DNA from: a virus
Length of the DNA stretch: 45,777 nucleotides
Virus record (IMG/VR): IMGVR_UViG_3300044898_000025
Location: 1-45,777 of that record
Direction: 5' to 3' (one strand)
Positions 1-45,777 of the stretch are shown in pieces. The notes below the pieces were generated by a model. It was not told where the DNA came from. It searched no databases and saw only the letters and a list, made by a program, of their open reading frames with translations. Numbering within the stretch: the first letter of the stretch is position 1; each line of letters starts with the position of its first letter. The position numbers and the translations under genes are program-made.

Positions 1-127
1 TCCGTTCGACCTGGCGCAGCCCGTTGATGAGGGTTTTCGGCTTGAGCTTTTTCGTTTTCAGTTCTTTCTTGACCTGAGCGACCGGCTTACCTACGGACGC
101 GGCGTAAGCAGTGATGGCGGCCGGGGT
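1..127. repeat. Terminal direct repeat copy 1 (identical to 45651..45777); circularisation/assembly overlap
   Basis: All 127 nt at the left end recur exactly at the right end. The repeat sits inside one continuous minus-strand reading frame, so it marks a closed circle rather than a biological terminus. Confidence 0.9.
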
Positions 128-3100
128 CGGGGCGCCGGACGAAGTCGTGTAGCTCGGGGCGGAACTTGGAGCCGAGACAGAGCCGCCGCCAACCGTGACC
201 TTGTTCGGCGCGCCTTCCATCAACTGAACGTGATTGTCCTCTGCGCTGGAGCCGCCCTGTGCGGTGCCGAATGGCCGATAGAGGCCGACCGATTCATAGA
301 CCGATTCCGGCACCGCTGCCGCGCTGGCCAAGGTCGGCGCCCCGACCCCAATATCGGAGGCTTTCCCTTCGGTGTGTGGGTCATCAGGAAAGCCTCCGAC
401 TTCTACCGAGTGCTGAGGCGTACGAGCCCCCGAGATGATGTAGACGGGCTTGCCGGTCTTCTTCGAGAGCAGGAGAAGGCGAGCGACGATTTCGGGCTCC
501 TCCCCCTTCTTGACGTTCGCCGGGCCATCGGAGGTCTGGCCGACGACGACGGAGCCGCCCGCGTGGTGGATCGTGCCGGTGGTGCCCTTGCGAACGATTG
601 GCGAGCGAGCCACTCGCTTTGCCAGATGCTCAACGTGGATCGTCTGCGGAGAGGCTTCGACAGATCCGGCTTCCCGAACGGGGATACCGAGCTTCTTGGC
701 GTGAGCTTCGGCTGCCTTCAGTGCTTTACGAACCTGCGCCGGGGCCCCACCGCCCGAGCTGGAGACGCTGATCGTTCCCCCCGTATTAATGGCGCCCGTC
801 CCCCACGCGCTCGGACCTTCGATGTACGAACGAATTTCCTGTTCAGATGCGCCCGACTTTGCCAGATGGGAGATACCGACAATCGAGGACGCGGCCTGGT
901 AGGCATAGTCGCCGCCGATCTTCCCTTCCAGCCATTCAGCCGATGCTTTCGCTGCGGCTTTTGGGGTCGTGTGATTGAAGTAGCTCGACTGGCTAAAGGA
1001 AGTCGGATGCGCGGGGTAGCCGACGCCGAGCCAGTTTTGTTCCCCGGCTTCCCCACCGTTTGAAAATCCACCGCCCTCCTGCTTGACCCATTCGCCCGCG
1101 AGCTTCGGCGGGATTTTCGTGTAGTGGGAGAACCACTCGGCGAATTCTTTTTGATCCTGATGTTCGAAGCCTTCGATGCTCGGGACCGACTTCTTGTCGA
1201 AAAGCGTCTGCGCCGTTTCAAGGCGCTTCTGCACCTGCCGGGTTCGAGGCGTGGTGATCTTGCCTTCGCTGTTGAAGCGGAGCTTCCCGGCTCTCCCGGC
1301 CTGGATGAGTTCTTTGCGCGAAGGCGTGCCGAGCGTCTTCTGATGCAGCGACGCGAGGAGTTTGGGCCGGTGCGCTTCGGCGAGAACTTCGTGATGCTGG
1401 GCCTTGGTCAGCGGCTTCGCCGGACCTTTGTAATCCGCAGCCTGTGCAGGAGCCCCGCCCACGAGAGAGGCAAGAGGGCTAGTGACGGAGCCGAGCACGC
1501 TTCCGACGCCACCCGGGAGGCTGACGCTGGGGAGATGCAGTGATTCGCTCGGCGGCTTGTAGTTCAGCGCTTTCCTGTTACCTGAGCCCCCGAACCCCGA
1601 GGATTCAAACGGGCTCTTGCCGCTGCTTTCGCCGAAGCCCGAGCCTTCAAAGGCGCTTTTGCTCGAGGCCGGTTCTTCGCCCGCTGCCGTATAGCGTTCG
1701 TATTCTTCCTGGCTCTGCTTGGCGAGCGCAGGGCCACCAATCTTGCGGAGCAGCTTTTCCTTTTCCGTCCAGGCTTTCTTGTTGGTCGCCTTGAGCTTGG
1801 CGACGATCTTCTGTCTGTCCTGAATCGTCTTGGTTTCATCACCCTGCGCTTCTGACTGAGCGCTATGCCCGGTGGTGCCGATCCGCTGCTCAATCGTATT
1901 GAGCGCGTTTTCGAGTGCGCCAGCAGACGCGGGACGCGGGGTGTAAGGGTTGACAAATGACGCCCAGTTCTTGTTCGGCTTCAGGATTTCGTAGGCCTTG
2001 GAAGTCGCGCTCTGCGGGTGGGGGCTGAAGCCGTGGAAGCCAACCGAATTCTCAAGCTGCCTGACCGCCGGCGAAAGGGAGGCGGCCTGTTCGGCTGCGT
2101 TCTCCAAGATCCCGAGGAGCCCGTGGCCGGGCAGCTTTTGGTTCGTGAAGGTGTTCGTATTCGTGGCGAGAGAGACGCCGGTGTTGATCCAGGGGTTCGT
2201 CGCGCCGAGGGTTTTCAGCAGGTTGCCTTCGAGGACCGTTTGCCCGACAACGCCGAGTGGAGACATGCGCGAGCCGCTGGGGTTTTCAACGGGTTCATCC
2301 TTGGCATTGCGACGGACCGGGTTGGAGTAGGCCGTGATGCTGTCGAGGGGCGAGCTGTAGGTGACGCCGGTGACGCCCGTTGCTTTCGCCTCGGCCGCCG
2401 CGATTTTCTGGAGTTCGTTGGAGTTGCGCTGGGCGAGGAAGGCCAGCGCCGTGGCGGCGACCGGGTGGTTGACTGGGAAGGTGTGCAGCACCCAGACCGT
2501 CGAGTAGCGAATCCAGGGATAGAAGATGACAAACGGGGCGACGGCTCGCTCAGTTTTGGTGAAGGAGTTCCAGTTACCGCCGATCTTGTTGAGATTGCGC
2601 TGGAGATCGCGAGCGAGGGCGGGGTGTCTGGAGATGTAGTCGAGACGCTGGGCAGCGTTCATGCCTTTGGTGGCGTCGCTGATGACGCGCATTCCCTTGT
2701 CGAGGCCTTTGACCCCGCCGTACCAGTTCTTGAAGCCTTTGCTCGCCCTGACCGTCGCCGCGAACTCGCGCATTTTCGAGGCGTTCCAGCGATCCCATTT
2801 CCCCATCGTCTCGCCGTTGGCGAGTTTCCAAACACCTTGGCCGAAGCCAGAATGCTTGATCGCCCGGGCGGGCGCGTAGGGGTCGGAGTTGGAGAAGGCG
2901 GTGTGCGGGGTGCCCATGACTCCGGCCGAGGAACCGATCATCGCTTTGATGCGAGCCTGGGAGGCCGGGTCCATCTTCTGGATGTCCGACATCGCCTTGA
3001 TCGCCTGCGGGGCGCGGATCAGGGCGCTCGGTCCGAGTGCTGCCGCGATCGGGATGCCGGTGGCGAATAGCTGCGCGAAGACCCAGGCTGGGTCGTTCAG

Positions 3101-6100
3101 CACCAACCGGGAGGGGACGTTGGCGATCGCCCGCAACTTCGAGGGAAGGACACCTTTCAACTGCGAGACCAGCTCGTCCATCCCGGCCGAGCGGATTGCC
3201 GTGTAGGTCAACCCTTTGCCGCCGTTGTGGCCCATGATCTCGTCGCGGAGGTCGGGGTACTTTTCGACCAGCTTGACAATGCCATCCTCGCTCTTGGCCG
3301 AACGGACCTCGTCAATCATTCGCAGGGCATCAGCACTGGAAAGGTCATGGGCGCCGTTCAGCGCGGCCTTCAGGAGCGGGGTCGGGAACCACTCGGTTCC
3401 GGCCGGCATGTGGTGGGTGTCCTCTGCCCACTTGCGCTCGGCCTCGGTGGCGATGTGTTTGTAGGAGCCGTCCGGCATCCGCACCGGGGTCTTCAGGTCG
3501 TTGATGCTCGTATGGATCAGGTCGTTGAGCGCGATCTGAGTTCGGGGGGCGATAGCCGAGGAGTGGAGAACGCTCTCCAGTCGGGCGTCGGCCTCGCCGC
3601 TGCGGGCTATCTCTCCGGTCGAGAAGTGCGTGACGCGGCCAGGGAGGTCGCGCTTGACGCCGCCGCTCGAATGAGAGCCGGGAGCGCGCGGGACCTCGTC
3701 GTGTATGTGGACGGGCTCGAGCAGGCCTAGCTCTTTGTTGGCTGCGCGCTGCTCGTTGACGAAGTCGCGCTTCATCGCCCGGCCTGAACCGGGGAGGCTC
3801 GAGGAGTCGATTTTGCCGGGGTGGCGAGAGAACTTGCTGATCTCCCCGTAGAGCGCCTTGCGCTGCTTCGCCGTGGCGCGCGCCTGTTTGTAGAGGTCGT
3901 CGGCTTGAGCCTGCTCGCCTCGGCCTCTCGCGTCTCTGGCTTCCCGGCGCAGCGTCGACTCACTCGCCTTCAGGTCTTCGTATTTCTGCCAGGCTTCGTC
4001 GCGGTACCACTTGGTGCCATCGGGCTTCTTGCCGAGGATGTCTTCCGCGCGCTTGGTGACCCTCTCGGTGTCCTTGAGAATCGGCGGTTTGCCCTCTTTA
4101 GCCCGCAGATGATTGGCGAAATCGTTCTGGATGCGGAAGGGCTTGGGCTCGTAGTTGCCGGGAAGCTCTTTTGCGAGGCGCTTCTGCCCAGCGCGAAGCT
4201 CATTCGTGAGGTTGTGGTGGCGCTGATCGGCAAGGATCTCGGGCCGCTTCGTTCCCTCGTTGGTGGCGATGCGGTCGTTGATCGTCTTGTCGGGCCGGGT
4301 GATGTCGGCCGGGGCGCCGTGGTAGTCACGCAACTCTTCGAGAAGCTTCACGCCCTTGGGAGAATGCGGGAGGCCGTACTTGGCGAGAACCGGAGCCAGA
4401 GCCTCATAGCTGCGCCCCATGTCCTTGGCGAGCGGCGACATCCCGAAGCCTGCGCCTTCGCCCTTGAGCCGGCCCTTGATCCTGCTGGTAACGCCCGTCG
4501 CGTCAGGCGGCGCGCCGTGGGCGGCCTTGCGGAGGCGGTTCATCTCGATCTGGTTCCAGCCATGCGCGGTCTCTGAAGCACGGGTGGCGTCCAACGCCTG
4601 CTGGGCGCGGTCGTGGTGGGCACCGATGTGTTCGCCGAGGCCACGGAAGACGTAGTGCTCACCCGTCCCCTGGACTGGGACCGGCGGTTTCAGCACGTTC
4701 TTTTCGTGGCGGGAGCCGAGCCTGCCGCGTTCCTTCGGAGCGGTCAGCCCGTCGTTGGCTGCGCCCTCTACTGCGCTAGCGCGTTTGGCAGAGCGGCTGT
4801 TCTCGACCGCGCCTCTGACCTTCCCTCGGGTCGCCGTGTAGAGGTCTGAGCCGTGGAACTGGTGCAGGAGTGCCGGGGCCGGGAGGAGCCAGGAGACCCC
4901 CGATTTCTTCCTGACCGATTCTTCGACCTCTTTGGGATTCCCCGAGAAGAGTTCTTCGCCGAGTTCCTTGGTGCCTCCGGCGAGCGCACCCAGGGTATTG
5001 GTGAGCGGCTTGGTCGAACCCTGCAGCGCCGATTCGATCCCCGCTTCCCCCACTGCCTCTGGGGCGGTGAAGAACGCGGGCAGGGTGCGTCCGGTGGTCT
5101 CGAGCGTTTCGAGGGGGTGATGCCGGAGCGCTTCGCCCGTGCCCACGCCGAGTGCTTCAAGGTTCTTGGCGACCGGGACGTTGCCGCCCCCGGCACGGTT
5201 GACGGTGGCTGCAAGGCTGAGACCCGAGAAGGCTTTCGCCGAGTTCTCGGCGGTGCCGACCGCACCTTTGACTGCCGCTTTCCCGGTCGCCTTCGGGGCG
5301 GCCTTGGCCGCGCCTTTCAGGGCATCGGGGGTGGCTTTCAGGGCATCTTTGATCGCCTGCGGGGTGGCTTTGAGCGCGGCGGGAGCAGCGCGGAGAACGT
5401 CGGCTGCCTCGCTCGGCGCGTGTCGAAGAGCCTTGGCGACCGTGACTCCCGTCTTGCCTGCCTCGATTGCGGCCCTCGTCGCCTCGGGGATTCCCTCGGC
5501 CACCTTGGCCGCCCCCTCTCCCGCCGGGATATTGGAGAGCAACTGAAGTTCCTTGCCGGTTGGCGTGTGGAGGTTGCTGGTCCCTTCGAGATCCCACTTG
5601 AATCGCTGCTTGACCGCTTCAGCGGCGTTCTTGGCTTCCCCCTCGACGAACTTGTCCGCGGCGCCCGCGCCGGGCTGCTGCAAGCGGAGGGTCTTGTAGA
5701 GACCTGCAGCGTCATGGGCGAGCGAATCCAGCGGCGAGGATTCAGAGGCTTCCTGTTCGTGAGCGTGGAGTTTCGCGGCGGCCCGGCCGGCGGACCCCTG
5801 GGGGACGCCAACGTTGTGGGCGAGCTGCCCAGCCTGTTCTGGAGTCAGGCGCAAGCTTCGAGGGGCGGTTCCGAAGAGAGGGGTGTGGCTGAGGCCTTTG
5901 GGACCTTCGAGGGCTTTGGCTCCGGCAGCCGCGTTGCTGATCTTCGCGAGACCCTTGACACCGACGACTTTCCCCTGCGCGTTGGCAGCCTGAACCGCCG
6001 GGTGGTTGAGCAATGACTGTCGGGCTGCTGAGACCTGTTTGGCGGCCTTCGCGACCTTCGCATCTACCGAGGGCGGGGCGAGCGGGGAAGCGCTGGTGGG

Positions 6101-6463
6101 CGCCTTGTAGGCCTTGGTGACGTAGCGGTTGACCAGCTTCGCCTGTCTTGCTTCGGCCTTCTGCTGGCGGACTTCGGCACGAACGGCGGCGGGGTGCGGC
6201 GCGGCAGAGACCGGGACCCCAGCCGTTTGGTAGGCCGTCGCTGGGTATTCGTACCCCGAGGCCGAAGGCTGCTGGATATCGCGGGGACCGATCGGCACAC
6301 CGGGTTGAGGGGTGCGCCCTTCGTGTTCGTGCTGTTCGGCCGCAGACGGCGTGGCCGGTGTGGAGGGATGAGGCGTGTACTCCCCCGGCCCATGCATGAG
6401 CAGCCGGGGATTGAAGGTCGGCTTCGGCCCTTTGACCTTGACTTTGGCTTTCGGGGCGGCCAT
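1..6463 (-). CDS. Giant virion-associated (internal/ejection-type) protein, N-terminal 2154 codons; continues across the junction to the stop at 45532 (total ~2193 aa); C-terminal M15-type zinc peptidase module
   Basis: ATG at 6463..6461 lies 3 nt after the TAG of the upstream gene. Hand translation (MAAPKAKVKVKGPKPTF...) stays open to nt 1. The ORF track has no entry in this minus frame over 6.4 kb because the ORF leaves the window. Nt ~225-460 read KPVYIISGARTPQHSVEVGGFPDDPHTEGKASDIGV...AEDNHVQL (H-x6-D...H). It occupies the T7 gp16-like slot. Confidence 0.85.
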   Translation of the reverse strand, partial: MAAPKAKVKVKGPKPTFNPRLLMHGPGEYTPHPSTPATPSAAEQHEHEGRTPQPGVPIGPRDIQQPSASGYEYPATAYQTAGVPVSAAPHPAAVRAEVRQQKAEARQAKLVNRYVTKAYKAPTSASPLAPPSVDAKVAKAAKQVSAARQSLLNHPAVQAANAQGKVVGVKGLAKISNAAAGAKALEGPKGLSHTPLFGTAPRSLRLTPEQAGQLAHNVGVPQGSAGRAAAKLHAHEQEASESSPLDSLAHDAAGLYKTLRLQQPGAGAADKFVEGEAKNAAEAVKQRFKWDLEGTSNLHTPTGKELQLLSNIPAGEGAAKVAEGIPEATRAAIEAGKTGVTVAKALRHAPSEAADVLRAAPAALKATPQAIKDALKATPDALKGAAKAAPKATGKAAVKGAVGTAENSAKAFSGLSLAATVNRAGGGNVPVAKNLEALGVGTGEALRHHPLETLETTGRTLPAFFTAPEAVGEAGIESALQGSTKPLTNTLGALAGGTKELGEELFSGNPKEVEESVRKKSGVSWLLPAPALLHQFHGSDLYTATRGKVRGAVENSRSAKRASAVEGAANDGLTAPKERGRLGSRHEKNVLKPPVPVQGTGEHYVFRGLGEHIGAHHDRAQQALDATRASETAHGWNQIEMNRLRKAAHGAPPDATGVTSRIKGRLKGEGAGFGMSPLAKDMGRSYEALAPVLAKYGLPHSPKGVKLLEELRDYHGAPADITRPDKTINDRIATNEGTKRPEILADQRHHNLTNELRAGQKRLAKELPGNYEPKPFRIQNDFANHLRAKEGKPPILKDTERVTKRAEDILGKKPDGTKWYRDEAWQKYEDLKASESTLRREARDARGRGEQAQADDLYKQARATAKQRKALYGEISKFSRHPGKIDSSSLPGSGRAMKRDFVNEQRAANKELGLLEPVHIHDEVPRAPGSHSSGGVKRDLPGRVTHFSTGEIARSGEADARLESVLHSSAIAPRTQIALNDLIHTSINDLKTPVRMPDGSYKHIATEAERKWAEDTHHMPAGTEWFPTPLLKAALNGAHDLSSADALRMIDEVRSAKSEDGIVKLVEKYPDLRDEIMGHNGGKGLTYTAIRSAGMDELVSQLKGVLPSKLRAIANVPSRLVLNDPAWVFAQLFATGIPIAAALGPSALIRAPQAIKAMSDIQKMDPASQARIKAMIGSSAGVMGTPHTAFSNSDPYAPARAIKHSGFGQGVWKLANGETMGKWDRWNASKMREFAATVRASKGFKNWYGGVKGLDKGMRVISDATKGMNAAQRLDYISRHPALARDLQRNLNKIGGNWNSFTKTERAVAPFVIFYPWIRYSTVWVLHTFPVNHPVAATALAFLAQRNSNELQKIAAAEAKATGVTGVTYSSPLDSITAYSNPVRRNAKDEPVENPSGSRMSPLGVVGQTVLEGNLLKTLGATNPWINTGVSLATNTNTFTNQKLPGHGLLGILENAAEQAASLSPAVRQLENSVGFHGFSPHPQSATSKAYEILKPNKNWASFVNPYTPRPASAGALENALNTIEQRIGTTGHSAQSEAQGDETKTIQDRQKIVAKLKATNKKAWTEKEKLLRKIGGPALAKQSQEEYERYTAAGEEPASSKSAFEGSGFGESSGKSPFESSGFGGSGNRKALNYKPPSESLHLPSVSLPGGVGSVLGSVTSPLASLVGGAPAQAADYKGPAKPLTKAQHHEVLAEAHRPKLLASLHQKTLGTPSRKELIQAGRAGKLRFNSEGKITTPRTRQVQKRLETAQTLFDKKSVPSIEGFEHQDQKEFAEWFSHYTKIPPKLAGEWVKQEGGGFSNGGEAGEQNWLGVGYPAHPTSFSQSSYFNHTTPKAAAKASAEWLEGKIGGDYAYQAASSIVGISHLAKSGASEQEIRSYIEGPSAWGTGAINTGGTISVSSSGGGAPAQVRKALKAAEAHAKKLGIPVREAGSVEASPQTIHVEHLAKRVARSPIVRKGTTGTIHHAGGSVVVGQTSDGPANVKKGEEPEIVARLLLLSKKTGKPVYIISGARTPQHSVEVGGFPDDPHTEGKASDIGVGAPTLASAAAVPESVYESVGLYRPFGTAQGGSSAEDNHVQLMEGAPNKVTVGGGSVSAPSSAPSYTTSSGAPTPAAITAYAASVGKPVAQVKKELKTKKLKPKTLINGLRQVER

Positions 6464-6466
6464 GAG

Positions 6467-7903
6467 CTACCCGAACGGGTTGACGCCCCCAGAGAGCCTT
6501 TCGCCGTAGCCCTTGTTCCACCAAGCTTTGAGGACTTTGGCGACGACGGTTGGGTTGGCCGAGGCGGTGCTGTTGACTTTGGCGATGTAGGTCTGGAGGA
6601 CTTTGTTGGGCGGGGTGCCCTTCGGAACCTTGCCGAGTTCGGTGACAATCGTCGGGATCAGCGTCTTGACTTCCTTAACTTCTTCGCCGAGCTTTTTCTG
6701 TTGTTTCTGGGCTTCGCCCGACGCCGCGTTGGGGTGTTTGGCTTCCCATTCCGCAAGTCCGAACTTTTTGAGTTCCAGTTCGAACTGACGGTCGGCGTTG
6801 GACTGGTCCTGGGCGTTTTCCCCAGTCTTGGCGGCGGCGGCGGCGTTGGCCTCGGCGGCAGCGGCCTTGGCCGCTTCCTTTTCGGCAGACAGCTTTTCTT
6901 TGTTCCCTGCGACCGCGTCCTTGCCGAGGATGAACTTCTGTTCGTTGCCTCGCAGGCTCAGGAGGTTTTTGGCGAAGTCGGTCCCGAAGGCGGATTTGGC
7001 TTCGCCGAGTTTTTCCCGCAGCCCGTTGATGGACTGGTCGTATCTCTGGTTCGATTCGCCGACTCGGTTGACGGTGTCGCGGTTGATCGCACCGACCGCT
7101 GAGCCACCCTGCATCGCGGCAGAGCCCGCCATCGCCGCTGCCAGCTGATTGCTGTTGGCGGCCTGAGAGGCGGCGAACTGCTGGGCGGCCTGGTTGTCGG
7201 TCGACTGCGCGGCCGTCTGGGCGGCGACCGCCTGCGCTAGGGCTTCTTGGGCTCCGCCCCCGGAGGGTGCGCCGCGCTGGGCAAGCTGGGACTCATAGCT
7301 GCCGAGCGCACCTGACTGCTGGGCTGCCAGTTCGGCGTTGCTGGTCGAGGCGATACCTGCGGCATTGGTCGTCAACTGGGAACCAAGAGCCTGCTGGCGG
7401 GCGATGTTTTCCGCCTCGGATTTGGCGATGTTGCTGTAGACGTCTGAGACGTTCCCCGAGGTCCTGGCCCCCAGTTTCCCGAGACCCGCCGCTTCCTGTT
7501 TTTTTGCTTTTTCGGATTCCCTGACGAGACCCGCGTAGCCGTGGATCTGCGGTTTCGTTTCGGTGACCGCCAGAGCGCGGGCGTATTCGCGCATTTCCTT
7601 CCCCGAGAGGGGTTTGCCGGGTTTGTAGTCTTCAAGGACTTTCCAAGGATGGAAGCCACCCGTGGTCTGGGTCTTGCCCCCTGGAGCCGGAGCAGGCTTC
7701 GGGGGCTTGGTGACCGGCAGACCGGTACCGATGCCCACCTTGGGTTCATTCCCAGTCGCGGGCTGCGGTTTGGTTGCACTGAGAAGCTGGACGCCATCGG
7801 CGGCGGCAGCGCTCAGAGAGCCCTGGCCTCGAGCGGCAATGGCCTGGGCGAGGCGGCCTATGTGGGGGTTGCGGATGCGGTTCCCGCCGAGTCCTTGAGC
7901 CAT
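6467..7903 (-). CDS. Putative internal virion/ejection protein (478 aa)
   Basis: Long ORF that is Ala/Gln/Gly-rich with no TM segment. It lies between the tubular-protein slots and the giant gene. Function is inferred from position only. Confidence 0.6.
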   Translation of the reverse strand: MAQGLGGNRIRNPHIGRLAQAIAARGQGSLSAAAADGVQLLSATKPQPATGNEPKVGIGTGLPVTKPPKPAPAPGGKTQTTGGFHPWKVLEDYKPGKPLSGKEMREYARALAVTETKPQIHGYAGLVRESEKAKKQEAAGLGKLGARTSGNVSDVYSNIAKSEAENIARQQALGSQLTTNAAGIASTSNAELAAQQSGALGSYESQLAQRGAPSGGGAQEALAQAVAAQTAAQSTDNQAAQQFAASQAANSNQLAAAMAGSAAMQGGSAVGAINRDTVNRVGESNQRYDQSINGLREKLGEAKSAFGTDFAKNLLSLRGNEQKFILGKDAVAGNKEKLSAEKEAAKAAAAEANAAAAAKTGENAQDQSNADRQFELELKKFGLAEWEAKHPNAASGEAQKQQKKLGEEVKEVKTLIPTIVTELGKVPKGTPPNKVLQTYIAKVNSTASANPTVVAKVLKAWWNKGYGERLSGGVNPFG

Positions 7904-7906
7904 GCG

Positions 7907-8791
7907 TCACTTCCCCTTCTTGTTCTTTTGGAGGGCTTTCACGAGCGCTTCTTTGGCGGCGGGGCTGAACTTGCTTCCCCAGCCCTTCGGGTTAGCAGCA
8001 GGCTTCGTCGCCCAGGAGGCGGGCGTGTATTCGGGCGAGCCGGTTTCGGCTTCTTTCCCCTGACCTTCGGCGTAGCGCCCGGCGGCGGCGGCGAGCTCGG
8101 CTGCCGCTTCGATGTTGAATCCTTCGACCAGAGCTTTGCGGGCGGTTTCCCGCGCCTGGTCTTCCTGGGACTTCGTCAGGGCTGCGTTGGCGCGTTCCTG
8201 CGTGTAGTCCCTGGTCTGTTCTCCCTCGGTGCGGTCGAGGTAGCCGGAGGAGGAGAGGTTGTGGGAGATCGCGTTTTCGCCGAGGTTCCGTTCCTGAACT
8301 TTGCGGCCCTGAATGGCCTGCTGGAGAGCGGAGCTATAGGACGAGTCCGCAACCGTCTGTTCTTGCAGGTCTTTGGAGTATTCGGTCTGGTCGTTGAAGG
8401 CGAGCTTGGAGAGGTTGGCCCAGTATTCGGCGTCCCTCGGGTCGGGCTGACCATTGGTCGGCGTGTAGGTCGGGATCGCGAAGGGGTTGGTATTGACCGG
8501 AGCGGGAGCCGCCGGCGTTTCGGCTGCTGCTGCCGACGTCGAGCCCGTGACGCCTGAGAAGTTGGTGCTGGCGATTCCAGCGGCGGCCTGTTGGAGAGCC
8601 GCCGAGGGACCGGTTGCAGTCGATTTGGGGGCGGCGGCCCGGATGGCAGTCCCAAACGCCTTGGCCTTGGCTCCTCTCTGCGGGGCGACGATGCGATTAC
8701 CGAGCGCGGCTTTCATCGTCGGGGGCTTCGGGTTCTGGTTGACCTTCGGAATCCCGAGGCGAGGGGTTGACTGTCCGAGCCCGATAGCCAT
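7907..8791 (-). CDS. Putative internal virion protein (294 aa)
   Basis: ORF with a 1-nt start/stop overlap (TGATG) with the upstream gene. Composition is Ala/Gln-rich. Function is inferred from structural-module position only. Confidence 0.55.
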   Translation of the reverse strand: MAIGLGQSTPRLGIPKVNQNPKPPTMKAALGNRIVAPQRGAKAKAFGTAIRAAAPKSTATGPSAALQQAAAGIASTNFSGVTGSTSAAAAETPAAPAPVNTNPFAIPTYTPTNGQPDPRDAEYWANLSKLAFNDQTEYSKDLQEQTVADSSYSSALQQAIQGRKVQERNLGENAISHNLSSSGYLDRTEGEQTRDYTQERANAALTKSQEDQARETARKALVEGFNIEAAAELAAAAGRYAEGQGKEAETGSPEYTPASWATKPAANPKGWGSKFSPAAKEALVKALQKNKKGK

Positions 8792-9180
8792 CAGGCAATC
8801 GCCACCCAGAAGACGTTGATGGTCGCGCTGATCGAAGAGCCGCTGACGGTTCTGGAGACCAATGAGAATTTCGTCGAGCCGGGCGTCGAAGGGGTGACGT
8901 TGTGGTCGGCGTTGAAAGATTCGGCCACCGGAAAGACGACGGTCGGCGTTGCTCCTAGCCCGTGGGTGATTTCTTTGGTGGCGCTCACGTTGCTAGCGGT
9001 GTAGGTGAGCGTCGCGGGTCCCCAGGCGACCTTGTGGGTGCCCGCGATGGCGAGCTTTAGAAACCCCGATTCGTTTTCCTGTTCGGCTCCATGCAGCCGC
9101 AGGTTGAGGGCGTCCACAATCATCTGCGCATCGGGGCGCGTCAGTTCCGCAGGGAGAGCAGGTGGATTTGGGGTCGGCAA
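8791..9180 (-). CDS. Structural-module protein, unknown function (129 aa)
   Basis: ORF in the structural operon with a Ser/Thr/Val-rich, beta-type composition. No motif recognised. Confidence 0.6.
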   Translation of the reverse strand: MPTPNPPALPAELTRPDAQMIVDALNLRLHGAEQENESGFLKLAIAGTHKVAWGPATLTYTASNVSATKEITHGLGATPTVVFPVAESFNADHNVTPSTPGSTKFSLVSRTVSGSSISATINVFWVAIA

Positions 9181-9198
9181 CTCGTTACGCTCCTCTCC

Positions 9199-9534
9199 GT
9201 GGTTAGACGGGTCTTAGTGATCGGGGTTGTTCTTGGTGGGTTGCTGGCGGGGACGGCGCAGGGACAGACGCCCCATCACCGCGTCCGGCTTCCCGCCAAC
9301 TTGCAGGCAGGAACGTGGAGGTCCCCGGCCCCGCTGCCGAAGACCGGGGCACTCAACCTCGCCATCTACCAATCAGGCGTCGAGATTGACGGGCGAGGAA
9401 AGCTGGTCAGCACGTGCAGCTACGAGCTATTTACGAAAGGCATCGCGTTGACGTTTTCTGCCTGCGGGCCAAAGCCGGTGGTCATCCACTACGTGAGCCC
9501 CCAGCCGCTCACCGTGATCTACTGGCTCGCCTAG
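9199..9534 (+). CDS. Plus-strand moron: small secreted protein (about 111 aa; alternative start GTG 9217)
   Basis: This is the only open frame in the 350-bp gap of the minus operon, and its third-position GC is high. From GTG 9199 it reads MVRRVLVIGVVLGGLLAGTAQG/QTP, a signal-peptide-like N-terminus with two Cys downstream. Its TAG shares a CTAG (9531..9534) with the stop of the convergent gene. Confidence 0.6.
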   Translation: MVRRVLVIGVVLGGLLAGTAQGQTPHHRVRLPANLQAGTWRSPAPLPKTGALNLAIYQSGVEIDGRGKLVSTCSYELFTKGIALTFSACGPKPVVIHYVSPQPLTVIYWLA

Positions 9535-10115
9535 CTGTAGCTGTGAACCTCTGCCTTTAAGGTCCGTTCCTTGACAGTGACCGACCCTGAACTGGCCTTG
9601 AATTTCACGCTCAGGTTGTAGGTGCCAGCCGGGATGTTCACGGCGTCAATCGCGCCTCCCCCGATTATGAATCCGGAGAGGCTCGTCACTTCAGTCGTGG
9701 TTGAAGTGACCAAGCTGCTGTTACCGGGGATCGTGACGAGCGCGCGAAAGTTCGTCCATCCGATCAACGGTTCAAGTGAATTGAGAGGCGGAACGCCCGA
9801 GCTATTCAGGAAGAAGCCGAGAGTGCCCGCCGAGGCCGAAGCTTTTACAAGAGCGAGATAGGAGAACCTGACAGTCCCTCCCGCCGGGACAACGATCCCT
9901 GGGATTTCATCCGCTTCGCTCATCGTCCCGAAGGCCGTGTTTTCCCGCGTGTGTTCTGCCGCAATAACTTTGGCCGGGTAGGTCGTGACCTTGGAGGGCG
10001 CTGCGCCTTCCAGCCCGACAACCGCTTCCTTGATTCGAACCAAGGCGGTCCTGATTTTGCCGTCAGAAGAGGCGAGGGCTTCGCCGGGTTCGGGGTTTTC
10101 AAAGCTCAGGGCCAT
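9531..10115 (-). CDS. Structural-module protein, unknown function (194 aa)
   Basis: ORF 2 nt downstream of the 520-aa gene, with beta-rich composition. No motif recognised. Confidence 0.6.
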   Translation of the reverse strand: MALSFENPEPGEALASSDGKIRTALVRIKEAVVGLEGAAPSKVTTYPAKVIAAEHTRENTAFGTMSEADEIPGIVVPAGGTVRFSYLALVKASASAGTLGFFLNSSGVPPLNSLEPLIGWTNFRALVTIPGNSSLVTSTTTEVTSLSGFIIGGGAIDAVNIPAGTYNLSVKFKASSGSVTVKERTLKAEVHSYS

Positions 10116-10117
10116 AT

Positions 10118-11680
10118 CTAGTTTTCCCTCATTTGGATGTTCACGGTCTCGGAGTAGATGCGGAAGTTGTGCGAGTCGTCGTTGTAGAAGCGGAAGCTCA
10201 CCGCGCGCCCGAGAGCGGGGGTCGGGTAGTGGCGATCGACCGTGGCGAGGTTGGCTTCCATGAAGGTGCCGGTCCTGGCTTTTTCGAACTGGCCCGTCGT
10301 CTCTTCCATGAAGAGGCCGCGCCCTTCGTTTGACTGGTCCCAGACTTCACCGTCCATCAGCCCCCATTCGTCGGTGAAGTCGGTCGCCACGTAGGCTTCC
10401 CAGTTGCCGACCCCGTCGATCCGCACTTCCCTCACGCGCTTGACTTTGTGAGGGTCGACGTAGCGCATATAGCGCAGAGAGCCCGAGTTGCCCCAAGCGT
10501 AATAGGGGGTGATGTAGTAGCTCTTCCCGGCGTAGTTGGAGCCGTTGTCCTGGAAGACTTCAGAGGCGAAGGCCTGAGAGACCCGCGTCGCCTTCGAGTC
10601 AGCCGAGTAGAGGGTTGGGGTTCCTCCTGGGTCGAGCAGGGCGAACTCGTTGGTCGCGCAGTCGTGGGGCCACCAAGAGCCGGCGATCATGTCGTACTCA
10701 AGGACGTGGTCGTTCTTGACGCCGAGCGTCGAGACCGAGAGGTAGTAGCGGCGCCCGATCATCGTCCCGGCGGCGAGCTTGGCCGTGGCGGGGCTGTTGG
10801 CAACCGCGTCAGTCGTGGGCTTGATCGAATCTGAGAACGGCGTCACGCCCTTGCCATCGGTCTTGCAGACGCCTTGGTCCTCGGAGAGGAAGAAAACGCC
10901 TAGCGGCGTCTGGACTATCGAGCGGTGAGCGACGCAGCCGATTTCGTTGGAGATCTGCCGGTTGGCCGCCGTGTTCGGGTCGTAGATGACGTAGGTCTTT
11001 CGGCTCTTGAAGACCAGCAGGTAGGAGCCGATGATCCCGATCCCGGTGATCGTCTGGCCATCGGTGGGCTCGAGGTCGACGTAGTTTTCGGCTTCCCAGT
11101 TGGAGAGGTCCGGGGTCGAGCCAGTGATCCCCGAATAGCGGACCCGAGAGCCTTCAGCGCACCAAAGGCGAGAGGAGAAGTAGGTCAGGTACTTGGCTTC
11201 TTTAGGCACCGTGCCTGCGGTCGCGACCCAGTTTTCCGTCGCGGCCGCCGAGCCGTTCCACTTCTGCGGCGTGTCGACGCCGTTCAACCCGTAGATCGGT
11301 CCGGTGCCTCCCGTCGCCACGTCGCCCTGGGCCCAGTACCAGCGGGTGTTCGCGGTCAGGCCCGTCTTGAGGGAGCTTGCGACCCCGGCCGTGGTCATCT
11401 TGAAGATCGTGTCCGTGGTCGCGGTGGTCGCTACCCCGATCAGGCTCTTGGTCGCCGTGTTCACCGGGAAGAGCGTGTGGACGCCGGTGGCGTTGATGGG
11501 CGAGCCGGTGAGCGTCGCACCGGAGACCGTGACGAAGCCGTTGCGCTTCTCGATGTCCCCCGTGGCCGAGGTGTGGACGTTGAGGCAGTCGCGGGCCTGA
11601 TTACCCTGAAGCAGATAGGGGCCGCTCTGGTTGTTCAGACCGCCGCTGAAGTCGCTGTAGGTGATCGGGAATCCCCGCAT
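10118..11680 (-). CDS. Putative tail tubular/nozzle protein (T7 gp12-like slot, 520 aa)
   Basis: N-terminus MRGFPITYSDFSGGLNNQSGPY. It directly follows the 217-aa adaptor-like gene. The assignment rests on size and synteny only. Confidence 0.5.
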   Translation of the reverse strand: MRGFPITYSDFSGGLNNQSGPYLLQGNQARDCLNVHTSATGDIEKRNGFVTVSGATLTGSPINATGVHTLFPVNTATKSLIGVATTATTDTIFKMTTAGVASSLKTGLTANTRWYWAQGDVATGGTGPIYGLNGVDTPQKWNGSAAATENWVATAGTVPKEAKYLTYFSSRLWCAEGSRVRYSGITGSTPDLSNWEAENYVDLEPTDGQTITGIGIIGSYLLVFKSRKTYVIYDPNTAANRQISNEIGCVAHRSIVQTPLGVFFLSEDQGVCKTDGKGVTPFSDSIKPTTDAVANSPATAKLAAGTMIGRRYYLSVSTLGVKNDHVLEYDMIAGSWWPHDCATNEFALLDPGGTPTLYSADSKATRVSQAFASEVFQDNGSNYAGKSYYITPYYAWGNSGSLRYMRYVDPHKVKRVREVRIDGVGNWEAYVATDFTDEWGLMDGEVWDQSNEGRGLFMEETTGQFEKARTGTFMEANLATVDRHYPTPALGRAVSFRFYNDDSHNFRIYSETVNIQMREN

Positions 11681-11683
11681 TCC

Positions 11684-12337
11684 CTACCTCCAGACGTTCA
11701 GGCCGAGAGAGCCATGCGGGTCTGACCACGTCCCACCGACCTGACGAGGCCCATCGAAGGAATCTGCCTGAACCTCGCCGCGTGCTTTGAGCAGCCCTTT
11801 TTCCCAGATCGCTTCCCAGGTCTGCGCGGCCTGGAAGTCGTCCTCGCGCAGGAACGCTTTCCACATCGCGTAGGAGACGAGAAGCTCTTGATACTGGACC
11901 GGGATTTCAGAGATATCCGTGTCATTGACCATGTCGGCCGGGAGCTTGCGATAGCGCAACGTGAAGCTGTAGACGTTGTCGGGGGTCGGATAGAGGAAGA
12001 GTTCCCCGCCGCGCACCGAGTATCCGTAAGGGGCGCCTGAGGACGCCGGGAGGGTGTCGAAATCGCGCAGGTCATATGGGGTCAGGAGTTCGTGGCTATC
12101 GCTCCGGTAGAGGTCGACGAAGCGAGCGTAGTTTTCAGGCAGCGCGTAGCTCGCATCGGCGGCCACGGTCGTAATCGACGATTCCGCCACCTGCGTCCTG
12201 ATTTCGGAGGAGATGGCGAACTTGCGCTGGGCGTCGTTCAGCCACGTCTTGACCAGGGGTCGGTACTTGGTTTCCGAGAACTGGAAGGTCAGGACCTCGT
12301 CTTGGAGCGCCTTAAAGGAACGGCCGGCCAGCGTCAT
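11684..12337 (-). CDS. Putative head-tail adaptor / tail tubular protein A-like (217 aa)
   Basis: Assignment rests on its position after the capsid gene plus one small gene, its size near T7 gp11, and a 4-nt overlap with the upstream gene. Confidence 0.45.
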   Translation of the reverse strand: MTLAGRSFKALQDEVLTFQFSETKYRPLVKTWLNDAQRKFAISSEIRTQVAESSITTVAADASYALPENYARFVDLYRSDSHELLTPYDLRDFDTLPASSGAPYGYSVRGGELFLYPTPDNVYSFTLRYRKLPADMVNDTDISEIPVQYQELLVSYAMWKAFLREDDFQAAQTWEAIWEKGLLKARGEVQADSFDGPRQVGGTWSDPHGSLGLNVWR

Positions 12338-19815: not shown

Positions 19816-19819
19816 CGAC

Positions 19820-20398
19820 TCAGGTGATCCCGTAGAGGATCGGACCCTGCACGGCCGCGAGAGAGCTTGGAGTAAAGGAGGCCGGAGCAGCGGTGAGGCC
19901 CGAGCCGGCCGAACCCGATCGCAGCGTGGCGCCGCTGGTGCCGAGGTTTGCCGAAACACCGCTTGACGCGCCGCATCCGAATTTTCCCGGCGTCGTGCCC
20001 TGCGTACCCATCAAGAGGCCTACCCAGAATTCGGAGCGTTCCGCGATCGACAGGCTTTTTTCGCTATCGACGGTGATTGCGACCGTCTTTTCCCCAGCGC
20101 TCCTGAAGCCCACGCTTTGATCGGCCGAGACTCCAAGCCGGGTCCCGCCGATGCTGTAAACGGAGACGAAGCAGTTGGCGTCCTCGCTTGAGCTTGCCAC
20201 CGCTATCTGGAGCTTCACGTTGGAGATCGTCAGCGCCTTGCCCACTTTGATCCGGGTGTAGTGCTGAACGCCCGCCGTTGGCTGGAAAACCTGATTCGTC
20301 GTCGCCGGGTCGTAGGACCATGCGAGCAGACCCATATCGGTTGGCGTCCAAGCGCCGGTTTCTGGAGCCGGAGGAGCCGAGAAGGAGAATTCAGGCAT
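19820..20398 (-). CDS. Tail-fibre-associated protein (192 aa from ATG 20398)
   Basis: MPEFSFSAPPAP... start lies 1 nt after the upstream stop. Composition is Ser/Gly/Thr-rich. It is adjacent to the tailspike gene. Confidence 0.55.
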   Translation of the reverse strand: MPEFSFSAPPAPETGAWTPTDMGLLAWSYDPATTNQVFQPTAGVQHYTRIKVGKALTISNVKLQIAVASSSEDANCFVSVYSIGGTRLGVSADQSVGFRSAGEKTVAITVDSEKSLSIAERSEFWVGLLMGTQGTTPGKFGCGASSGVSANLGTSGATLRSGSAGSGLTAAPASFTPSSLAAVQGPILYGIT

Positions 20399-39512: not shown

Positions 39513-39703
39513 CCGTCCTCCTCGATGTGGCCCTCGCGAATCAGCCAATCCTCGCATTGAGAAATCTGAAAACGGCGGGCTCGCCCGAAGCGCTTGGAAG
39601 GCATCCCGTCTCGCAGCCGGTATTCGACCCAGCGTCGCGACATTCGGAAGTGCGCCGCGAACTCGTCTATCGAGACGTAGGGCTCGAGGGTCGTAACGCT
39701 CAC
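39509..39703 (-). CDS. xis: Excisionase / AlpA-like HTH protein (64 aa)
   Basis: VSIDEFAAHFRMSRRWVEYRLRDGMPSKRFGRARRF is a typical MerR-type excisionase HTH. It lies immediately upstream of int. Confidence 0.7.
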   Translation of the reverse strand: MSVTTLEPYVSIDEFAAHFRMSRRWVEYRLRDGMPSKRFGRARRFQISQCEDWLIREGHIEEDG

Positions 39704-43589: not shown

Positions 43590-43661
43590 TCAGACGCGGC
43601 GCGCCAGGAACAAGACCAAGAGCACGATCAGGATGACGAGAAGCACTCCGACGATGGTCAT
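43590..43661 (-). CDS. Tiny hydrophobic peptide (23 aa), last gene of the lysis cassette
   Basis: Hand-translated as MTIVGVLLVILIVLLVLFLARRV*. It has an ATGA overlap with the 66-aa membrane-protein gene. Confidence 0.35.
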   Translation of the reverse strand: MTIVGVLLVILIVLLVLFLARRV

Positions 43662-43858
43662 CGGCCCTTCCCCGCGTCGTTGCGGACTTTCCCCAGCGTG
43701 GCTGAACCGGCAGTGACTACGCCGAGCCCGATGAGGAATTCCTGGTAGTCGATATGCCCGGTCACAAGCGCGTAGACGCCACCGAGGGCAGCGAGCACGG
43801 TGATGACCGAGGCGAGGGGGATCGCGTCGAGGAACGAGTAGATGGGGTTGGTGCTCAC
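43658..43858 (-). CDS. Holin-like small two-TM protein (66 aa)
   Basis: Two hydrophobic helices (LASVITVLAALGGVYALV and FLIGLGVVTAGSATL) followed by a charged C-terminus. It lies in the lysis cassette. Confidence 0.5.
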   Translation of the reverse strand: MSTNPIYSFLDAIPLASVITVLAALGGVYALVTGHIDYQEFLIGLGVVTAGSATLGKVRNDAGKGR

Positions 43859-44280
43859 TGGGCTATCTCCTTCTTTTCGAGTTGCGCGAGCGTGTTGGGA
43901 GCTCGGTTGTGTTTGATGTCGTCGAGGACCTCGAGGGCGAGCGTGGCGCTGGTTCCCCAGTCAGAGGCCCCGATGGCCGTAACCGTCTCCGTCGCCGGAG
44001 CGTTGGTGCGGAGGGCGCGCAGGATCGCCTCGTAGCCGTGGCCCTTCCCCTGCAACGTCTTGGCGGTGGCTTCGACTCCCTGTTTGCCGGAGACGTAGTT
44101 CTTGACCCCGACTGAGTTGAAGGTCGTGGCGCCCGGCATGTCCTGCGTCGTGTTGAACGGATTGAAATGCGCGCTGCCGCCCTCGGCCTGCATCTGGGCC
44201 TGAAGGGCGCGACGGTTGTGGAGGCTGATGGGCGCGTCCAGACTCAGCAAAAGCAGCCGAGCGAATTGCTCGCGAGTCAT
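43855..44280 (-). CDS. Hypothetical soluble protein in the lysis cassette (141 aa)
   Basis: ORF with ATGA overlaps with the endolysin gene and the holin-like gene. Confidence 0.6.
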   Translation of the reverse strand: MTREQFARLLLLSLDAPISLHNRRALQAQMQAEGGSAHFNPFNTTQDMPGATTFNSVGVKNYVSGKQGVEATAKTLQGKGHGYEAILRALRTNAPATETVTAIGASDWGTSATLALEVLDDIKHNRAPNTLAQLEKKEIAQ

Positions 44281-44906
44281 TTTGAGCCCCGCTTTTCGCG
44301 TTGCTGATGGAAGACGGCGTTGATCTTGGCCGCGGTTTTCGGGCCGATCTCCCCGTCCACTTTGAGGCGATAGGACTTCTGGAACGCCTTGACGGAGTCG
44401 ACCACTTCATCCACGAACTTCCAGCGCCAGTGCTTCAGGTAGGCCGGGCCCTTGCGTTTGTGGATATAGGCCAGCCGTTTCGTGAACTTGACGACGCGAG
44501 GGCCTTTGGAGCCGTGCTGGAGGGTCTTGAACGGAGGCGTTCCCTTGTAGATGCCTGCGACGTAGTTGAAGTGCCACGCCTCTGAGAACGCTTCGGTCTT
44601 CTTCCAGCCGTAGGCGCCGCCGTGCTCATAGATCCACGACTGTTCCCAACTCGCGTCGATGTCTACGGCCGTTCCGTTGCCGTGGTTCGAGGTCCCCGGC
44701 GCCGCGGCGAGGTTCCCTTGCCCGGACTGGTAGAGGTCCCAGAAGTAGACCTGTTCGTCATAGGTCCGGTAGGCCGAGACGGGGCGCAGGCCAGCGTCGG
44801 CCGGACCGCCAGGGGCCAGCCACGCAGTAGCAGCTTCGTTTGAGAGTTCCTTGCCAACCGGGATCGGGGTCAGGTCGGCAGAGGTCAAATGACCGTTAGA
44901 GGCCAT
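44277..44906 (-). CDS. Endolysin: VanY-type peptidase M15 domain plus C-terminal peptidoglycan-binding domain (209 aa)
   Basis: SAYRTYDEQ...APGTSNHGNGTAVDI...EAWHFNY is the zinc D,D-/L,D-peptidase pattern. C-terminal VKAFQKSYRLKVDGEIGPKTAAKI matches the PG_binding_1 pattern. Confidence 0.85.
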   Translation of the reverse strand: MASNGHLTSADLTPIPVGKELSNEAATAWLAPGGPADAGLRPVSAYRTYDEQVYFWDLYQSGQGNLAAAPGTSNHGNGTAVDIDASWEQSWIYEHGGAYGWKKTEAFSEAWHFNYVAGIYKGTPPFKTLQHGSKGPRVVKFTKRLAYIHKRKGPAYLKHWRWKFVDEVVDSVKAFQKSYRLKVDGEIGPKTAAKINAVFHQQREKRGSK

Positions 44907-44941
44907 GACCGTCCTTTCTATGTAGGCCCTCTACGGGCGGG

Positions 44942-45322
44942 TTAGGGACTAAGCGGCACGACGTAGAAGCGAGGGCAGAGCGCGCCTTTCTGGCCGGTGA
45001 CGCGCTGGTAGAGGACACAAGGTCCTTCGACGCCTTCGGCCTTCGCGATTGCTACGCGGAGAGCTTCACATTCGTGGGCGGCTTTGGGGTCCGGCTTGAC
45101 GCCTTCTCCCAAGTGCGAGTAAGCCTTCGAGCAGGCGGAGTTGGTGATCGTGTTGATCGTCGTGCCCTGGTCGCTGTTGACGATGGTGGTCTGGATGCCG
45201 ATGAAAAGGGCGACGGCGAGGCCGATCCCGAAGACCCAGGAGGCGATCCGCAGACGCTTGACGGAGCGCGCGTAGGCGGGGTCTGACTCGGCGACGTGGG
45301 CGATCTTCTCGGCGAAGGTCAT
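44942..45322 (-). CDS. Type-II membrane protein with Cys-containing external domain (spanin-like or holin-accessory, 126 aa)
   Basis: Single TM segment IASWVFGIGLAVALFIGIQTTIV, with 4 Cys in the C-terminal domain. It lies upstream of the endolysin gene. Confidence 0.5.
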   Translation of the reverse strand: MTFAEKIAHVAESDPAYARSVKRLRIASWVFGIGLAVALFIGIQTTIVNSDQGTTINTITNSACSKAYSHLGEGVKPDPKAAHECEALRVAIAKAEGVEGPCVLYQRVTGQKGALCPRFYVVPLSP

Positions 45323-45501
45323 CAGTTGCCCGCCAATAGAAAGGCGATAACGGAACCGAGGATCGCCAAGCCCGCCCCACCCACAAGGACGGAGAGGCGG
45401 TTCAGCGCCTCGGTGGCTACTTCGACTTTCACGTCCCTCGCCGCCTCGCGGTTTTCGACTGCCCGCAGTCTGCCGTCGAGATCTCGGTATGCATCATCCA
45501 T
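45322..45501 (-). CDS. Tail-anchored small membrane protein (59 aa)
   Basis: Hand-translated as MDDAYRDLDGRLRAVENREAARDVKVEVATEALNRLSVLVGGAGLAILGSVIAFLLAGN*. SD GGGGAGGGG lies upstream. There is a TGATG overlap downstream. Confidence 0.5.
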   Translation of the reverse strand: MDDAYRDLDGRLRAVENREAARDVKVEVATEALNRLSVLVGGAGLAILGSVIAFLLAGN

Positions 45502-45531: not shown

Positions 45532-45777
45532 TCACAGCTTCCCCAGCGCCTGACGATCGCTGGACAAGGTCGCAAGAGAAGGGCCTGAGCTAGTCGTGCG
45601 GCCAGTGCTGAAGCCAGGGATGCCGTAAGCGCCGAGGTTCCCCGCGTAGATCCGTTCGACCTGGCGCAGCCCGTTGATGAGGGTTTTCGGCTTGAGCTTT
45701 TTCGTTTTCAGTTCTTTCTTGACCTGAGCGACCGGCTTACCTACGGACGCGGCGTAAGCAGTGATGGCGGCCGGGGT
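45532..45777 (-). CDS. C-terminal segment of the giant virion protein (same gene as 1..6463; 45651..45777 duplicates 1..127)
   Basis: The frame continues ...LINGLRQVERIYAGNLGAYGIPGFSTGRTTSSGPSLATLSSDRQALGKL* to the TGA at 45534..45532. The phase is consistent across the junction (total 6582 nt). Confidence 0.85.
   Translation of the reverse strand, partial: TPAAITAYAASVGKPVAQVKKELKTKKLKPKTLINGLRQVERIYAGNLGAYGIPGFSTGRTTSSGPSLATLSSDRQALGKL
45651..45777. repeat. Terminal direct repeat copy 2 (identical to 1..127)
   Basis: Exact 127-nt identity read directly from the sequence. Confidence 0.9.

Follow-up and report, generated by a model that had tools for sequence, protein, structure and literature searches.

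The window analysed here is the whole of a 45,777-nucleotide viral sequence (IMG/VR record IMGVR_UViG_3300044898_000025, positions 1 to 45,777), and its largest gene, which runs across the two ends of that sequence, encodes a 2193-residue protein, hereafter the giant, that ends in two predicted wall-degrading enzymes. Nucleotides (nt) 1-127 are an exact copy of nt 45651-45777. This 127-bp end repeat is the assembly (k-mer) overlap of a circular contig and no biological terminal repeat; 45651..45777 is not a second part of the molecule, which is 45,650 bp long. On its minus strand an open reading frame (ORF) extends from an ATG at 6463-6461 to nt 1 (1..6463, codons 1-2154 and the first base of codon 2155) and on from 45650 to a TGA at 45534-45532 (45532..45650, the last 39 codons and the stop). 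A preliminary description of the window, made from its letters alone, had predicted a hidden gene of ~2193 codons across this junction and proposed rejoining and translating it; the rejoined frame has 2193 codons and no in-frame stop. Leaving the overlap in at the join creates a false early stop at codon 2168, so the junction had been handled correctly there. The start codon lies 3 nt past the stop of the preceding gene and agrees with the N-termini of homologs (MAPKPKVKGGKK...).

Given the base composition, 2193 codons would stay free of stops by chance with a probability of ~10^-26, and the guanine-plus-cytosine (GC) fractions at codon positions 1/2/3 of the gene (0.64/0.51/0.78) are like those of the window's other genes. 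The plus-strand ORFs over the gene had been read as shadow frames; the four largest of them have GC1 > GC3 and Arg/Gly-rich translations, which bears this out. An identical 2193-residue protein is already on record in a public collection (P0001). Its contig, Logan SRR24887494_63953 (L013), is linear, 28,444 bp long and from a separate run (SRR24887494), and its alignment to the circularised window shows 0 mismatches in 13,968 bp and passes straight through the junction into the lysis genes. The open frame, the coding signs and this junction-spanning contig together establish that the giant gene is real and uninterrupted. Annotation pipelines miss the largest gene of a circular contig if the junction falls inside it.

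Two predicted wall enzymes at the C-terminus

All features below lie on the minus strand unless stated. The second of the two enzymes is an M15_3/LAS zinc peptidase predicted at residues 1985-2085 (209..511). Pfam PF08291 (Peptidase_M15_3) matched residues 1989-2042, covering profile positions 25-78 of 108, at 25.7 bits when the whole protein was searched and 27.2 bits when a C-terminal fragment was, against a cutoff of 23.2. A search with residues 1756-2097 returned 57 relatives, and the motif ISG.RTPQHSVEVGG...DPH.xG.ASD ... E..H.QL is conserved in the 58-sequence alignment. The giant's version reads SGARTPQHSVEVGGFPDDPH(2030)TEGKASD(2037)...AE(2075)DNH(2078)VQL; conservation is 90% or more at His2030, Asp2037 and Glu2075 and complete at His2078, which gives the H-x6-D...E-x-x-H pattern of the triad.

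We modelled the C-terminal two-domain region with AlphaFold2 from the 58 sequences (mean predicted local distance difference test score (pLDDT) 81.8) and found block means of 82-97, mostly above 90, in the peptidase domain. Foldseek matched the peptidase model to VanY, LdcB, ChiX, LysECD7, Ply500, LysB4 and Hedgehog N-domains with probabilities up to 1.0 (0.92-1.0 for VanY, LdcB, ChiX, Ply500 and LysB4) and a best E of 2.4e-3; theirs is the LAS fold. The C-terminal domain is accordingly listed here as a predicted M15/LAS zinc peptidase; the bond that it cuts is not readable from the sequence. The M15 call of the preliminary description is upheld by the above-cutoff Pfam match, the conserved His2030, Asp2037 and His2078 and the LAS fold of the model. 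Its motif is present as described, but not within the last ~150 residues, where it had been placed, since 108 more residues follow the peptidase. They form a C-terminal tail that begins with residues 2086-2154 (1..208) and continues at 45535-45650 to residue 2193.

The other enzyme is a GH73-like (glucosaminidase/lysozyme-like) glycosidase at about residues 1770-1892 (788..1156), assigned transitively. Relatives carry a domain of either the window's subtype or a second subtype (P0013, P0025, P0006 and P0011), and hhalign aligned the two with 99.3% probability (E 2.3e-20). We call the domain GH73-like because its subtype matches one whose P0013 member passes the cutoff of PF01832 (Glucosaminidase, GH73; 35 bits against 30.2, with 28 bits for P0025). 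In 15 aligned domains drawn from the two subtypes, Glu1796 (within QEGGG) never varies. The window's own domain had no direct match in Pfam and none in the PDB sequence-profile search, and the Foldseek matches of the two-domain model all fell on the peptidase half. It had been suggested that the ~2,000 residues left unassigned could hide more enzymes. One appears to be there, this glycosidase, and a scan of the giant found no polymerase or further enzyme.

The body, its family and the exchange of the cassette

The body of the giant has an Ala/Lys/Pro-rich N-terminal region (residues 1-440, 5144..6463) with the conserved islands LV..YVT.AY and RLL.HPAV..AN..GKVV, a conserved middle part without assignable domain (residues 441-1094, 3182..5143, alignment A1) and an all-alpha core (residues 1095-1600, 1664..3181). 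The core, identified by profile search and an AlphaFold2 model, defines the family and is its most conserved part, with a maximum of conservation at residues 1100-1350. It holds two hydrophobic segments, at residues 1125-1151 (3011-3091) and 1308-1345 (2429-2542), with Kyte-Doolittle values of 1.2-1.6. Residues 1-1750 had no match in Pfam, PHROGs, NCBIfam or the PDB sequence set. Neither the giant nor its core matched any of 50,697 GenBank phages by megablast and tblastn, for the core even at E=1. A whole-family profile searched against the PDB gave only a marginal NlpC/P60 match, which we traced to the enzyme domains of relatives.

A model of residues 1095-1640 built from 79 sequences was all-alpha and confident (pLDDT 81.8, pTM 0.80). 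Foldseek found no resembling solved structure in the PDB (best E 0.24, TM ~0.1); the copy used was current to April 2026, so the published structures of T7 ejection proteins should be included. Among the predicted viral structures of BFVD, the core resembled several proteins of uncultured phages annotated as 'Large polyvalent protein associated domain-containing' (LPD; E 2.9e-4 to 4e-2, probability 0.96-1.0, TMq 0.26-0.40), the best of them at E 2.9e-4, probability 1.0 and TMq 0.38. Further matches were one Cellulophaga phage protein, one cyanophage protein and, in Microbacterium phage Shocker, an uncharacterised protein (its second fragment) that we take to be the 1743-residue gp37 (E 4.9e-3, probability 1.0). 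For 'Internal protein D' of a T7-like Bordetella phage the values were only E 1.0 and probability 0.41, and tape-measure models stayed at noise level (E>0.4, probability <0.1).

A first search returned 18 relatives of 1383-2178 residues, many on contigs of ~40-48 kb and some within far larger bacterial contigs. An exhaustive hidden Markov model search with the core profile then gave 606 clusters at 50% identity with E<=1e-3, 203 of them at E<=1e-30. By these profile matches, the body is part of a family, so far uncharacterised, with at least 606 such clusters. The protein has no cysteine, and neither do the bodies of 141 members (0 Cys in 202,530 residues). Four proteins encoded directly upstream of the giant gene likewise have none; the window's other genes average 0.74%. 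The absence of cysteine would suit proteins that have to thread, unfolded, through a narrow channel and then act beyond the cytoplasm.

The enzymes at the C-terminus vary across the family, and precomputed domains of the first 18 relatives include M23, SLT, NlpC/P60, VanY and Glucosaminidase. Scanning the last 520 residues revealed a fixed two-slot plan, with a glycosidase slot followed ~150 residues on by a peptidase slot. The glycosidase slot holds an SLT, SLT_2 or GH73-like domain, and the peptidase slot holds M15_3 in the window, M23 in P0002, P0004 and P0008, NlpC/P60 in P0003 and P0005-7, and VanY in P0009. The window's closest relative in the body, P0002 (63% identity overall, 75% in the core), carries M23, and the closest relative of its enzyme cassette is P0020 (61% over 95%), a free-standing 504-residue protein in another phage contig. 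From these two, the exchange of modules is directly evident. Among another 21 tails scanned with Pfam, the counts were SLT 6, NlpC/P60 5, SLT_2 4, M23 3, SLT_3 2, Phage_lysozyme2 2 and M15_3 1. By eye, the tails of P0211, P0198, P0185, P0104, P0097 and others also show SDH…A.DL…GHYDHVHVG, an H-x-D…H-x-H pattern of LAS type unrecognised by Pfam at E<=1e-3, and may represent a further, undescribed peptidase subfamily in the peptidase slot.

Most members lack the cassette altogether. Among the 150 best, 116 stop no more than 200 residues past the core, at a modal length of 1400-1500 residues that is too short for it (short forms), and 34 have tails of 390-830 residues. Since 116 members have no room for them, the enzymes are, on this sequence evidence, extras that the conserved scaffold can carry or do without. 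T7 gp16 offers a parallel, in that its hydrolase domain can also be dispensed with and moves between ejection proteins (PMC8954989). Each of the phages compared (the window, L005 and L006) encodes a separate endolysin, which is of another type, so the cassette is not the lysis enzyme.

Two elements mark the boundary between body and cassette. Short Gly/aromatic tandem repeats (SAFEGSGFGESSGKSPFESSGFGGSG) at residues 1600-1630 (1574..1666) mark the ancestral C-terminus, because short-form relatives end in similar repeats. They are followed at residues 1634-1676 (1436-1564) by a junction motif, (Y)KPP..LHLP..PGLG...SPL.SLVGG..AQAA, whose stretch from LHLP onward takes up residues 1640-1676 (1436..1546). 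Of 26 long forms, 21 have the motif and 3 more a near variant, versus 1 of 116 short forms, whatever enzymes follow. It is moderately hydrophobic and looks like a signal peptide in its hydrophobic and A-x-A portions; cleavage site, hinge and membrane element are candidate roles. At the far end, the last ~45 residues of the tail (…QVERIYAGNLGAYGIPGF…GPSLATL…R.ALGKL) are also conserved among long forms, whichever enzymes precede them.

Virion proteins with wall hydrolases, giants in actinobacterial podoviruses, and polyvalent or ejection proteins with exchangeable hydrolases were already known. New is a family that joins large size, lack of annotation, a fold unmatched in the PDB, a Cys-free body, a link to the bacterial order Solirubrobacterales (see below) and a two-slot cassette behind a conserved junction motif. 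Its one scaffold carries enzymes of four or more peptidase families and two or more glycosidase families, a natural set of wall-degrading modules matched to actinobacterial peptidoglycan, and the cassette series is a clean case for the study of domain exchange in virion proteins.

Gene order, host and proposed role in infection

The minus strand carries nearly all genes of the window. Read in the direction of transcription, the late region opens with the large terminase (22908-21406) and includes a P22-like portal (18033-15985), a protein in scaffold position between the portal and capsid genes, the major capsid protein (14086-12845), a 148-residue protein between the capsid and adaptor genes, a 217-residue SU10-type adaptor (11684-12337; PF24175 SU10_adaptor, 100.5 bits) and a 520-residue protein in nozzle position (10118-11680; phrog_511 match). 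Then come the four Cys-free proteins of 194, 129, 294 and 478 residues (6467..10115), two of them Ala/Gln-rich, and the giant. In the window, L005 and L013 the giant is the last structural gene and the lysis genes come next; the upstream order from adaptor to giant is common to L002 and L006. The four small genes keep their order at similar sizes in L002, L005, L006 and L013, and are candidates for partner internal or ejection proteins. None of the four had a family match, the adaptor and the 520-residue protein had no match in the PDB by phmmer, and NCBIfam returned nothing for the giant, one short-form relative or the neighbouring proteins. The window's gene set contains no tail tube, sheath, chaperone pair or distal-tail gene. 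Relatives of the major capsid protein among the 50,697 GenBank phages were confined to the Jasmine-group Arthrobacter phages, Shocker, one Cellulosimicrobium phage and two uncultured viruses, at ~29% identity; Jasmine is a podovirus by electron microscopy (EM) (PMC5513430).

The window also encodes a tyrosine integrase (38487-39731; PF00589, 97 bits) and an N6/N4 DNA methylase (32891-34204; 138 bits), which mark the phage as temperate. A scan of 185,579 species genomes yielded five relatives of the core (L007-L011), all in metagenome-assembled genomes (MAGs) of Solirubrobacterales/Solirubrobacteraceae. Relative P0003 lies in an Actinobacteria MAG, adjoining an integrase and a LexA-like repressor, and P0010 in a 244-kb contig with an integrase; relatives are located as prophages beside integrases in actinobacterial contigs. 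The giant's M15_3 domain is ~50% identical to cellular CwlO-like hydrolases, one of them from a Solirubrobacteraceae MAG. Because the MAG relatives, the P0003 and P0010 contigs and the CwlO-like similarity point the same way, the host is probably a soil actinobacterium of the order Solirubrobacterales. Our searches turned up no cultured phage of this order and no literature that describes its phages.

We think it reasonably probable that the giant serves a temperate short-tailed phage, with a Gram-positive actinobacterium as host, as its large internal (ejection) protein. The ordered series of SU10-type adaptor, ~520-residue protein, four small Cys-free proteins, giant and lysis genes points to the ejection protein of a podovirus and speaks against a tape measure. 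The T7-like internal-protein position given to the gene in the preliminary description holds by synteny, through the P22-like portal, the Jasmine-group capsid protein and the SU10-type adaptor; similarity to gp16 in sequence or fold was not found.

By analogy with T7 and SU10, a few copies of the giant would be packaged in the head together with the four small upstream proteins. At infection the giant and its partners would exit unfolded through the portal-adaptor-nozzle channel. The GH73-like glycosidase (Glu1796) would cut the glycan strand of the thick peptidoglycan, and the LAS/M15 zinc peptidase (His2030, Asp2037, His2078) a peptide stem or cross-link, although we can only infer the bond cleaved by the cassette. 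The ~1,650-residue helical body with its hydrophobic segments would extend the 10-nm-class tail over wall and membrane as part of a DNA conduit.

Several points weigh against this reading. Presence in the virion and ejection are inferred by analogy with T7 and SU10. The PDB profile search and Foldseek found no sequence or structural similarity of the giant to T7 gp14/15/16, the P22 ejection proteins or solved structures, the BFVD 'Internal protein D' standing at E=1 and probability 0.41. The hydrolases are C-terminal and double, as opposed to the N-terminal and single hydrolase of T7 gp16, and the GH73 assignment reaches the window's own sequence only by way of relatives. The hydrophobic segments are modest and lie within a soluble-looking helical domain of the model, so that membrane insertion is speculative. 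Finally, Gram-positive podoviruses of the phi29 type carry their wall hydrolase on the tail tip, not inside the head.

This last point leads to an alternative that we consider unlikely, in which the giant would be an external lysin of the tail tip or tail knob, like gp13 of the Bacillus phage phi29, digesting the wall from outside the virion without forming a conduit. A glycosidase and peptidase cassette has the same logic as phi29 gp13, which joins such a pair in one virion protein of a short-tailed phage infecting Gram-positive cells, and the giant has no homology to known internal core proteins. However, 116 of the 150 best family members have no room for a cassette and are nevertheless 1300-1500 residues long, which places the conserved function in the body and not in lysis. 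The virion module is SU10/P22/T7-like and not phi29-like, the giant gene comes after small, low-complexity, Cys-free proteins as genes of ejection proteins do, and a 228-kDa protein would be hard to fit on a stubby tail. Whereas phi29 gp13 has ~365 residues and sits at the tail tip, the window's enzyme pair is appended to a scaffold of ~1,650 residues.

Less likely still is a polyvalent effector in the sense of Iyer, Burroughs, Anand, de Souza and Aravind (2017), packaged in the head and injected with the DNA, whose body would act on host defence or physiology while the wall enzymes only aid entry. The giant resembles polyvalent proteins in being very large, predicted to be packaged and injected, and equipped with peptidoglycan-attacking domains; the core's best viral fold matches are LPD-annotated, and polyvalent proteins often carry lysozyme and DD-peptidase domains (PMC5512222). 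Against this, those matches have modest TM-scores and are to proteins that are uncharacterised as well. The giant and its relatives showed no Pfam LPD (E up to 1), MuF, ART, methylase, helicase or nuclease domain, and wall hydrolases are the only domains appended, unlike the diversity of polyvalent proteins.

Some mycobacteriophage tape measures carry wall-hydrolase motifs, and those of actinophages are also large and helical with embedded peptidoglycan hydrolase domains, while the window's endolysin weakly matches a PHROG annotated as tape measure (phrog_16823); a tape measure of a long-tailed phage is nonetheless very improbable, and we reject it on gene order and fold matches, given that no major tail, tail-tube or chaperone-frameshift genes lie upstream, that lysis genes instead of distal-tail or tip genes lie downstream, that the adaptor is SU10-type, that the capsid relatives are EM-verified podoviruses, and that the homology to tape measures which the preliminary description had named as fatal to a podovirus-type interpretation did not appear, BFVD tape-measure models reaching only E>0.4 and probability <0.1.

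Returning to an ejection protein, a close parallel would be the T7/P22-type ejectosome with T7 gp16 (internal virion protein D, 1318 residues). The giant and gp16 would each be the largest and last protein of the internal or ejection block in a short-tailed phage, with smaller partner proteins, hydrophobic segments and a dispensable, family-mobile peptidoglycan hydrolase. They differ in length (2193 versus 1318 residues), in the enzymes (two at the C-terminus versus one lytic transglycosylase at the N-terminus) and in the host, since the giant's is Gram-positive and, unlike T7's, has no outer membrane or periplasm to span. With the Kuravirus SU10, the adaptor (PF24175, 100.5 bits) is the one protein whose homology is demonstrable, and both genomes have a five-protein block after the tail genes. 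The five SU10 proteins gp20-24 leave the virion at genome release and gp20 is a transglycosylase (PMC9509320). SU10 differs in host and envelope, and is not known to have a 2000-residue protein.

Closer in host are Shocker and the Arthrobacter phage Brad (Jasminevirus), whose capsid proteins are distantly related to the window's (29% identity). Each has a giant hypothetical protein, Shocker gp37 (1743 residues) and Brad gp26 (1803 residues), at the genome position of the window's giant. Their layout runs from an adaptor-like 'tail tube' through a 514-684-residue protein, small proteins and a ~420-residue protein to the giant and wall-hydrolase genes. Compared by hhalign with the family profiles (19 and 79 sequences), neither gp26 nor gp37 showed sequence-level similarity, and the Shocker match ties the family to the giants of cultured actinobacterial podoviruses at the level of predicted fold only. 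In Brad (L001, 20517-27238) and Shocker (L012, 14450-20826) the giant gene stands directly before separate peptidase and glycosidase genes. Both of these are annotated endolysin, whereas the window has such a pair fused onto its giant and encodes one more endolysin. Because of this fused arrangement, the Brad and Shocker 'endolysin' genes might, by analogy, be virion-associated instead of, or besides, acting in lysis.

DNA passage of short-tailed phages through the thick Gram-positive wall is known in detail mainly for the phi29 type, and to our knowledge the ejection machinery of T7-, P22- and SU10-like phages has been studied only in Gram-negative hosts. According to a recent review, the Gram-positive phi29-like group is one in which such ejection proteins are not found (PMC8954989). 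The giant gene is a concrete candidate for wall passage in a T7/P22/SU10-like phage of an abundant soil order. We can imagine going further, in a proposal we hold to be doubtful: the ~600-cluster Cys-free family would be the Gram-positive (Thermoleophilia/Solirubrobacterales) counterpart of the ejectosome, with a new fold that builds a trans-wall DNA conduit. The C-terminus would be a socket exchanging glycosidase and peptidase pairs by recombination, joined through the signal-peptide-like element (…SLVGG..AQAA), which upon ejection would be cleaved or would enter the membrane, and in this way set the enzymes free or bring them into position.

Neighbouring genes

Directly downstream of the giant lies a lysis block (43658..45501) encoding proteins of 59 and 126 residues with a single transmembrane segment each, an endolysin, a 141-residue protein and a holin-like 66-residue protein. 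The endolysin (44277-44906) has VanY and PG_binding_1 domains, confirming the separate VanY-type enzyme, and thus the second peptidase gene, already noted in the preliminary description. The gene of the 141-residue protein (43855-44280) overlaps the end of the endolysin gene by 4 nt. This protein and the giant's GH73-like domain have in common the pattern ..AEGG...N...SDWGT. That it is a copy of the giant's glycosidase domain is no more than a lead, hhalign giving only 28.6% probability, and it has no similarity to the Shocker glycosidase gp39. It may be a second, glycosidase-type endolysin subunit, as in the split endolysin of Shocker.

A tail-fibre-like gene (18520-19959), with a phrog_33904 match at the C-terminus of its product and 9 Cys, lies between the terminase and portal genes, apart from the other tail genes. 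On the plus strand, an ORF at 9091-9534 occupies the gap between the genes of the 194- and 129-residue proteins, and could be a moron or a spurious call. The public gene call on L013 puts a 105-residue gene on that opposite strand (2930-3247, minus strand of the contig), and the relatives L002, L003 and L005 also have a small opposite-strand gene between those upstream genes.

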